Both the position numbers and the translations under genes were made by a program. Below, in pieces: positions 1,777-3,138 of a stretch of DNA of 64,000 nucleotides (positions within the stretch are counted from its first letter, which is position 1; each line of letters begins with the position of its first letter). The notes under the pieces were generated by a model that made no database searches, was not told where the DNA came from, and saw nothing but the letters and a program-made list of their open reading frames with translations. Source of the stretch: Dictyostelium discoideum (taxonomy: Eukaryota); NCBI GenBank assembly GCA_000004695.1, contig CM000153.2, positions 2,624,001 to 2,688,000 on the forward strand. The letters are read 5' to 3'.

Positions 1777-1957
1777 TTATTCTTGTTTATACAAAAGATT
1801 TACAAATTCCAGTATGTGTTGCTTTGAAATTTCTACTATATCACCATTTGATACCATTTCATCAAGAATAAAATGTGCTTTATCCAAATTAAACATAATC
1901 TAAATATTAATAAATAAAATTAATGAATAAAAAATTAATAAATATCATTATTATTAT

Positions 1958-1991
<34 letters not shown>

Positions 1992-2348
1992 TACATCTAA
2001 CTCACACTATATTTGCAAATATTGATTGATTATAAAGAAGAAGAGATTATGGTTCGATTAGTTTAATAAATTAAAAATTATTAAATAAATTATTATAGAG
2101 ATAAAAAAAAAAAAACTTACAACATTATCAAAACAACTATCTAAAATTTCTACATAATTATGAATGAGTTCTAAAATTGCTAATTCATTTTCAGTTGTAT
2201 CAACACCAACAATAAAAAATAATGTTGCATACTTTCTATATATGACTTTATAATCTTTATATTCTACAAATGAACACTTTTTATTATAAACAATATATAT
2301 ATTAAAATGATGAAACTTTTGTTAATATACAATACTATAGTAGGTATA

Positions 2349-2413
<65 letters not shown>

Positions 2414-2566
2414 AAATAAACTTACTTGAATTTCAGTTCTTGATAAACATTTTCTAATAATTTCACTTTCCATTGCTGGTCTTTCTTCAAATGGTATTGA
2501 TTCATAATATTGCGATAATCTAGTTTTACCCCGAATATTTACAAGTAAAAAATATTTAATAGCCAT
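1777..2566 (-). CDS. ap4s1: AP-4 adaptor complex sigma subunit, 4 exons including a 12-nt microexon
   Basis: Exons on the minus strand: 2426..2566 ([23 protein letters not shown]...SRTEIQ, donor GTAAGT); 2121..2276 ([52 protein letters not shown], donor GTAAGT); microexon 1995..2006 (TGTGAGTTAGAT = CELD, acceptor ..aaatatag, donor GTATGT); 1777..1899 ([40 protein letters not shown]). The spliced protein is 143 aa and aligns closely with human AP4S1 (144 aa), including [20 protein letters not shown] and [20 protein letters not shown]. Intron 1 carries an (AAT)n tract. Confidence 0.85.
2349..2410. repeat. (AAT)n microsatellite, about 21 units, inside ap4s1 intron 1
   Basis: Direct reading; perfect trinucleotide repeat. 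Confidence 0.95.
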
Positions 2567-2850: not shown

Positions 2851-3138
2851 TTATTTTGGTGGTTCAGTTTCTGGATCTAAATCTTTATGTTCCATACAAA
2901 CACCACAACAAATTCCTACTGCAGTATTACGAGCAAAAAATATTTGACCTGCACGGACATTACATTGGCCTGGAAATTGATCGGTACAAACAACATTCAT
3001 ACATGGGTTCTTTGGGTCAGTAATAATACTATTTAAATATGTTGAATCATAATAAACTTCTTCATTTGATAATGATAATTTGAATGAACAATATAATACA
3101 ATAGCTATTATTAAAATATTTAATAATTTAATATTCAT
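2851..3138 (-). CDS. Small secreted cysteine-rich protein (95 aa, 8 Cys), function unknown
   Basis: Complete ORF with an N-terminal signal peptide (MNIKLLNILIIAIVLYCSFKLSLS). The mature part, NPCMNVVCTDQFPGQCNVRAGQIFFARNTAVGICCGVCMEHKD, has regularly spaced Cys. Codon usage is ordinary, not homopolymer-driven. Confidence 0.5.
   Translation of the reverse strand: MNIKLLNILIIAIVLYCSFKLSLSNEEVYYDSTYLNSIITDPKNPCMNVVCTDQFPGQCNVRAGQIFFARNTAVGICCGVCMEHKDLDPETEPPK

Follow-up and report, generated by a model that had tools for sequence, protein, structure and literature searches.

Microexons of 15 nt or less are pervasively misannotated in plants, where they are conserved and lie inside protein domains (Yu et al. 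2022, PMC8831610). That survey dealt with plants only, and adaptor complexes are unmentioned in its main text. The 12-nt exon that we describe here, in the ap4s1 gene of Dictyostelium discoideum, is similar to the small microexons of plants in being a tiny coding exon in a conserved domain, missed by gene finders and deeply conserved; as in plants, its flanking introns carry recognition signals. In the literature searched we found no paper linking AP4S1 to a microexon, and microexons were mentioned together with Dictyostelium only as an option of TopHat in one description of methods.

The human orthologue AP4S1, the SPG52 gene, encodes a 144-aa protein (PDB 9u9i, chain S). It has an intron at c.294/c.295 (V98/S99), where the pathogenic SPG52 variants c.294+1G>T and c.295-3C>A are located; residues 76-98 are encoded by exon 4 (PMC6167175, PMC12110826). 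This intron matches intron 2 of the Dictyostelium gene. The human protein differs by having S in place of C in the motif (SELD instead of CELD), and the vertebrate exon structure discussed below was deduced from protein isoforms. Among the paralogous subunits, AP-1 sigma-1A has the segment NVCELD, identical to that of Dictyostelium AP-4 sigma. The CELD residues of Dictyostelium sigma4 correspond to C99-D102 of AP-2 sigma2, where the pocket for [DE]xxxL[LI] signals is lined by residues in contact with the dileucine motif (N97, V98, C99, L101 and L103; PMC3901399). AP-4 sigma4 is not known to bind dileucine signals, and the AP-4 cryo-EM paper contains no discussion of residues 99-102.

A predicted 12-nt exon in ap4s1

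We analysed a 64-kb stretch of D. discoideum DNA (the window), whose first 8 kb are extremely AT-rich (11-25% G+C). The ap4s1 gene lies there on the minus strand. Its exon 1 (2566..2426) starts with the ATG at 2566, encodes M1 to Q47 and ends at a GTAAGT donor; intron 1 (2277..2425; 149 nt, GT..AG, 9% G+C) follows, with a long (ATT)n microsatellite inside. Exon 2 (2276..2121) encodes C48 to V99, has the 3' end ..LDSCFDNV and is also followed by GTAAGT. Exon 2 is separated from the last exon by a gap of 221 nt (2120..1900), not 214 nt as given in the preliminary description of this locus. The same description placed in the gap a 12-nt exon encoding CELD, at 1995-2006, between aaatatag and GTATGT, and here both the coordinates and the flanks agreed with the sequence. 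Direct reading and translation of the reverse complement of 1995..2006 gave TGTGAGTTAGAT, i.e., C100-E101-L102-D103, preceded on the minus strand by ...GCAAATATAG and followed by GTATGTAAAA... (AG before, GTATGT after). The proposed microexon (2006..1995) divides the gap into intron 2 (2007..2120; 114 nt, GTAAGT...aaatatAG, phase 0, V99/C100) and intron 3 (1900..1994; 95 nt, GTATGT plus A29 ... atatttAG, phase 0, D103/I104). The last exon (1899..1777; acceptor ...atatttAG) encodes I104 to E143 (IMFNLDK...YKQE) and ends with a TAA stop.

All three introns are GT..AG, and their G+C content is 5-16%, in comparison to 22-33% in the ap4s1 exons. The microexon belongs to the small coding class (15 nt or less), with canonical AG/GT sites, phase 0 on both sides and the reading frame kept. 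When it is included, the coding sequence has 432 nt and the protein 143 aa, close to the 144 aa of the human orthologue, as had been proposed. When it is left out, the protein has 139 aa and the frame stays intact, since the length of the exon is a multiple of three. The junction sequence produced by inclusion is GATAATGTT/TGTGAGTTAGAT/ATTATGTTT, and that produced by skipping is GATAATGTT/ATTATGTTT.

The commonest Dictyostelium donor is GTAAGT, from which the microexon donor, GTATGT, differs; GTATGT is kept in D. citrinum and D. purpureum. Directly after this donor there is a run of 29 A (window 1960-1988, minus strand). An A-rich run is found at this place in D. citrinum and D. purpureum as well, and not in P. 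violaceum or H. album; the tract could be a splicing signal or mere AT-rich drift.

Several other features of the region were noted. The microsatellite of intron 1, (ATT)n/(AAT)n at about 2347-2412, has roughly 20 units and occupies nearly half of the intron; in the unspliced frame it reads as a poly-Leu tract, and a naive open reading frame at 2264..2566 thereby reaches 100 aa. A cullin-family gene (MMAKPNGKIQFKNLQSHGVLADPDFPKRTWKLLK...) occupies positions 1-319 of the minus strand, starting at about 319 and running off the window start, and the ap4s1-cullin neighbourhood is kept in D. citrinum, D. purpureum and P. violaceum. The adjoining open reading frame at 2851-3138 (minus strand) encodes 95 aa, hydrophobic in an N-terminal segment and rich in Cys in the C-terminal half (..CMNVVCTDQFPGQCNV..CCGVCMEH..); the product is probably a small secreted protein. 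Scanning the entire window for tRNA genes and Rfam families revealed no RNA gene.

The product resembles AP-4 sigma

The gene had been assigned to AP-4 sigma in the preliminary description, and our comparisons support this assignment. The 143-aa product matched the Pfam family Clat_adaptor_s (PF01217; gathering score 22.5 bits) with 154.1 bits, residues 3-140 being aligned with profile positions 2-139 of 142. For the 139-aa product the score was 132.8 bits; thus, the omission of CELD costs 21 bits. Among solved structures, the top match of the 143-aa protein was human AP-4 sigma-1 (PDB 9u9i_S; 1.9e-51, 177 bits), while the paralogues followed with 4.8e-37 (AP-1 sigma), 3.7e-30 (AP-2 sigma) and 8e-29 (AP-3 sigma). 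The named best matches of the 143-aa protein are AP-4 sigma, and the AX4 entry itself bears the name adapter-related protein complex 4 sigma 1 subunit. As judged by these similarities, the gene is an AP-4 sigma (sigma4) orthologue, nearer to AP-4 sigma than to sigma1, sigma2 or sigma3. A comparison with AP4S1 orthologues had been suggested as a check; the alignment to the human protein (9u9i_S) is ungapped across ...FSRVSELDIMFNLDK... only with CELD included.

The CELD codons are not expected in the gap by chance

We calculated how often AG, four [S/C]ELD codons and GT would follow one another by chance in a 221-nt gap with this base composition (A 0.44, T 0.45, C 0.07, G 0.03). The expected number was 1.7e-8, and the pattern did not appear in any of 200,000 shuffles of the gap. 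It has a single match in the 64-kb window when both strands are scanned, and the microexon is the sole AG-N12-GT in the gap.

As a different donor or acceptor might restore ELD in another way, we enumerated the stop-free in-frame AG..GT units of up to 30 nt in the gap. There are three: CELD (12 nt), LD (6 nt, nested in CELD) and MY (6 nt). None of the alternative routes to ELD, i.e., the LD 6-mer, the MY 6-mer or reading through the exon 2 donor, is credible, and the read-through meets a stop after 20 codons. The LD unit, AG/TTAGAT/GT, is the only other one overlapping the motif, and using the internal AG of TGTGAG/TTAGAT as an acceptor would give a 6-nt exon adding LD only; we give this hardly any credence, as the invariant C and E would be lost and the internal AG is not conserved, D. 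purpureum and H. album having GAA there.

CELD residues are invariant and lie in the folded core

The preliminary description held that (S/C)ELD is universally conserved in sigma subunits, and this held for the proteins compared here. Among the 121 best matches, CELD is present at the microexon position in 114 of the 114 non-dictyostelid proteins; the seven matches that are devoid of it are all dictyostelid gene models. Residues C100, E101, L102 and D103 are invariant in an alignment of 40 sequences.

In the AlphaFold model of the 143-aa protein (mean pLDDT 90.1), CELD is located at a loop-to-helix junction: it ends the loop 97-100, which comes after the long helix 78-96, and begins the helix 101-106. 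According to this model, the loss of CELD would shorten a loop-to-helix junction of the core and remove invariant acidic and hydrophobic residues, and a 139-aa sigma4 is expected to be defective.

The exon across dictyostelids

We read the orthologous loci of seven other dictyostelids, which makes eight dictyostelid genes together with that of D. discoideum. Four of the seven have a separate 12-nt exon flanked directly by AG and GT, namely D. citrinum (TGCGAGTTAGAT), D. purpureum (TGCGAATTAGAT), P. violaceum (TGCGAGTTGGAT) and H. album (TGTGAATTAGAT), and these are also the species that share the intron at the V99/C100 position. The consensus of the four is AG/TG[CT]GA[AG]TT[AG]GAT/GT, with all differences being synonymous third-position changes. 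When the five exon 2 to exon 4 regions were aligned as DNA, AGTG[CT]GA[AG]TT[AG]GATGTA stood out as a conserved island, while the surrounding intron barely aligns. Thus, the codons and splice sites of the microexon are under purifying selection in dictyostelids.

In the remaining three species, T. lacteum, C. fasciculata and A. subglobosum, the CELD codons are fused with the upstream exon and form its last four codons (...F-E-x-V-C-E-L-D/GT...). Because of this fusion CELD is certainly coding in these species. The intron after D was found in all eight dictyostelid genes.

Deposited gene models

In an exact-sequence look-up, the D. discoideum AX4 reference (EAL64916.1, XP_639923.1, UniProt AP4S_DICDI) proved to be the 139-aa form. 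The 143-aa form is identical to KAM9942712.1, KAM9960054.1 and KAM9976898.1 ('hypothetical protein ACTFIW_007287'), which are independent annotations of three newer D. discoideum assemblies; the 139-aa form is given by two or three newer strain annotations of this species as well. No transcript-derived copy of either form was present in the protein collection, where the clusters consist of genome-annotation entries only, with no Logan or transcriptome copy.

Seven dictyostelid models are devoid of the four residues, i.e., the AX4 reference and six others; the deposited models of D. citrinum, D. purpureum, P. violaceum, H. album and A. subglobosum are of this kind. The A. subglobosum model (P0073, locus L005) drops CELDI even though its exon runs on into CELD without interruption, while eight residues are missing from the H. 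album model (P0083, locus L006); in view of these losses, both models are mis-spliced at CELD. The D. citrinum model (P0003, locus L007) has in addition an extra VSSKYK at the acceptor of intron 1. The earlier expectation that automated predictors would be likely to miss the exon is thus borne out by AX4 and the six other models, but not by the three newer annotations that have 143 aa.

The protein of 143 aa is therefore already in GenBank, the orthologous microexon is already annotated in other eukaryotes, and missed microexons are a recognised problem. The error in the AX4 and six other dictyostelid models, and the presence of a common 12-nt exon in different eukaryotic supergroups, are unrecorded in the literature searched.

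Inclusion or skipping of the 12-nt exon

The explanation that we favour, and in which we have high confidence on the strength of the sequence comparisons, is that 2006..1995 is a genuine coding exon 3 of ap4s1, most likely constitutive, and that the 139-aa AX4 protein results from a gene-model error. The claim of the preliminary description that the microexon is real is backed by the chance expectation of about 2e-8, by the gain in the Pfam score and by conservation in four dictyostelids as well as in Nematostella, Sycon and Vitrella (described below). The counterpoints are that the 139-aa form stands in the curated AX4 reference and in some strain annotations, that the donor is not of the commonest type, and that an exon of this length can be skipped in frame, so that a minor isoform without it may exist. 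On the favoured explanation, the pre-mRNA would contain three short, AT-rich introns, and the removal of the two flanking ones would join ...FDNV-CELD-IMFNLDK... to yield the 143-aa sigma4. Each short flanking intron is presumably recognised as a unit (intron definition), so that an exon of only 12 nt would pose no steric problem. The CTAAT/TTAAT-like elements upstream of each acceptor could act as branch sites.

A regulated cassette, in which case D. discoideum would make sigma4 of both lengths, 143 and 139 aa, and the reference would represent a real skipped isoform, is unlikely in our opinion, although it is the alternative that survives best. Skipping would leave the reading frame intact, both forms are predicted among the D. 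discoideum strain annotations, and the vertebrate RefSeq isoforms devoid of exactly SELD (X2, 3-T4) may be real skipped transcripts. However, the CELD residues are invariant across eukaryotes and belong to the folded core in the AlphaFold model, at the loop-to-helix junction, and in three dictyostelids they are built into the upstream exon and thus cannot be skipped. For these reasons the 139-aa product would probably be non-functional. The 139-aa models are most simply explained by gene finders failing on a 12-nt exon.

We consider it very improbable that the AX4 model is right as it stands, in which case exon 2 would be joined to the last one with nothing in between and the CELD 12-mer would be a non-functional relic or a coincidence. 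A coincidence is hard to reconcile with the chance expectation given above, and a relic with an exon whose splice sites are kept and whose codons change only synonymously while the introns barely align. The curated reference protein does have 139 aa, and the models of D. purpureum and P. violaceum concur with it; nevertheless, the CELD-less models are unverified automated predictions, while the eukaryotic orthologues among the best matches all carry CELD.

The exon beyond dictyostelids

For species outside Dictyostelia, exon structures were obtained by mapping annotated proteins onto their loci. In AP4S1 of the cnidarian Nematostella vectensis (P0120), CELD is encoded by a separate 12-nt exon at L009:3265-3276 (ttttgcAG/CELD/GTatcc). 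Microexons of 12 nt for CELD were likewise found in the sponge Sycon ciliatum (P0021; L011:5839-5850) and in the alveolate Vitrella brassicaformis (P0057; L010:1144-1155). In all three the upstream exon ends with ...F-x-x-V and the downstream exon starts with IMFN. These genes are similar to that of Dictyostelium in having the 12-nt CELD exon between phase-0 introns at V/C and D/I with AG/GT sites. They differ from it in that the intron at E76/N77 is retained, while Dictyostelium has lost it, and in that their introns are longer and not AT-rich; moreover, the microexon is present in their annotated models. In the moss Physcomitrium (L008:2077/2325), the V/C intron is present, the intron after D is absent, and CELD is fused to the last exon. 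The boundary of Dictyostelium exon 1 at Q47/C48 is an intron position in Physcomitrium, Nematostella, Sycon and Vitrella, and the Q/C and E/N positions are common to the non-dictyostelid species that we compared.

With the human protein as the query, we obtained at least 12 AP4S1 entries of vertebrates that are devoid of exactly SELD (139-154 aa, ten of them having 140 aa), including P0132-P0141, P0157, P0166, P0229 and P0239; some are labelled isoform X2 or 3-T4. In other vertebrate entries junk sequence either replaces SELD (VSLI, VSLM, VS, VSETLN) or comes directly after it (SELD-VSFF...). Since isoforms without SELD occur along with read-through junk on both sides of SELD, and since the human gene has the c.294/c.295 intron, we infer that vertebrate AP4S1 probably has a 12-nt SELD exon as well, which is often skipped or mis-modelled. 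In Marmota flaviventris, an intronless 435-nt copy at locus L012 (CM105172.1:73947109-73948143) encodes a full 144-aa AP4S1 with SELD; this copy, which carries the annotation of the AP-4 sigma-1 gene, is a processed retrocopy.

Age of the microexon

Because both intron positions and the 12-nt exon are found in cnidarian, sponge and alveolate AP4S1, the microexon is most likely an ancient one, dating to early eukaryotes, and not recently made. That three supergroups each gained a pair of phase-0 introns independently, and at the very same positions, is much less likely than an ancient origin. We lean towards a more specific reading, with reasonable but far from full confidence, in which both bounding phase-0 introns and the microexon go back to about the last eukaryotic common ancestor. 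The separate 12-nt exon would then have been kept in Amoebozoa (Dictyostelia), in Metazoa (sponge and cnidarian, and presumably vertebrates) and in Alveolata (Vitrella), and one flanking intron would have been lost in the moss and in three dictyostelids. Such a loss would explain why T. lacteum, C. fasciculata, A. subglobosum and the moss have CELD joined to an adjacent exon. The exon would also have been mis-modelled systematically, in at least seven dictyostelid and at least 12 vertebrate entries.

Implications for AP-4 sigma

For the annotation of a model organism the result provides a correction, as the AP-4 sigma of AX4, RefSeq and UniProt (139 aa) is devoid of four invariant core residues. 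Cloning, modelling, aligning or adaptor phylogenies that use 139-aa models inherit a four-residue deletion, and the deleted segment is part of the cargo-signal pocket in AP-2 sigma2. The exon represents no new kind of element or mechanism; conserved between eukaryotic supergroups and yet overlooked by gene finders time and again, it could be used to test annotation methods that take account of microexons in organisms other than plants and animals. If its proposed age is true, few known conserved exons would be as old and as small as the CELD exon of AP4S1; given a 12-nt SELD exon in vertebrates, the human SPG52 variant c.295-3C>A would lie at the acceptor of this very microexon.
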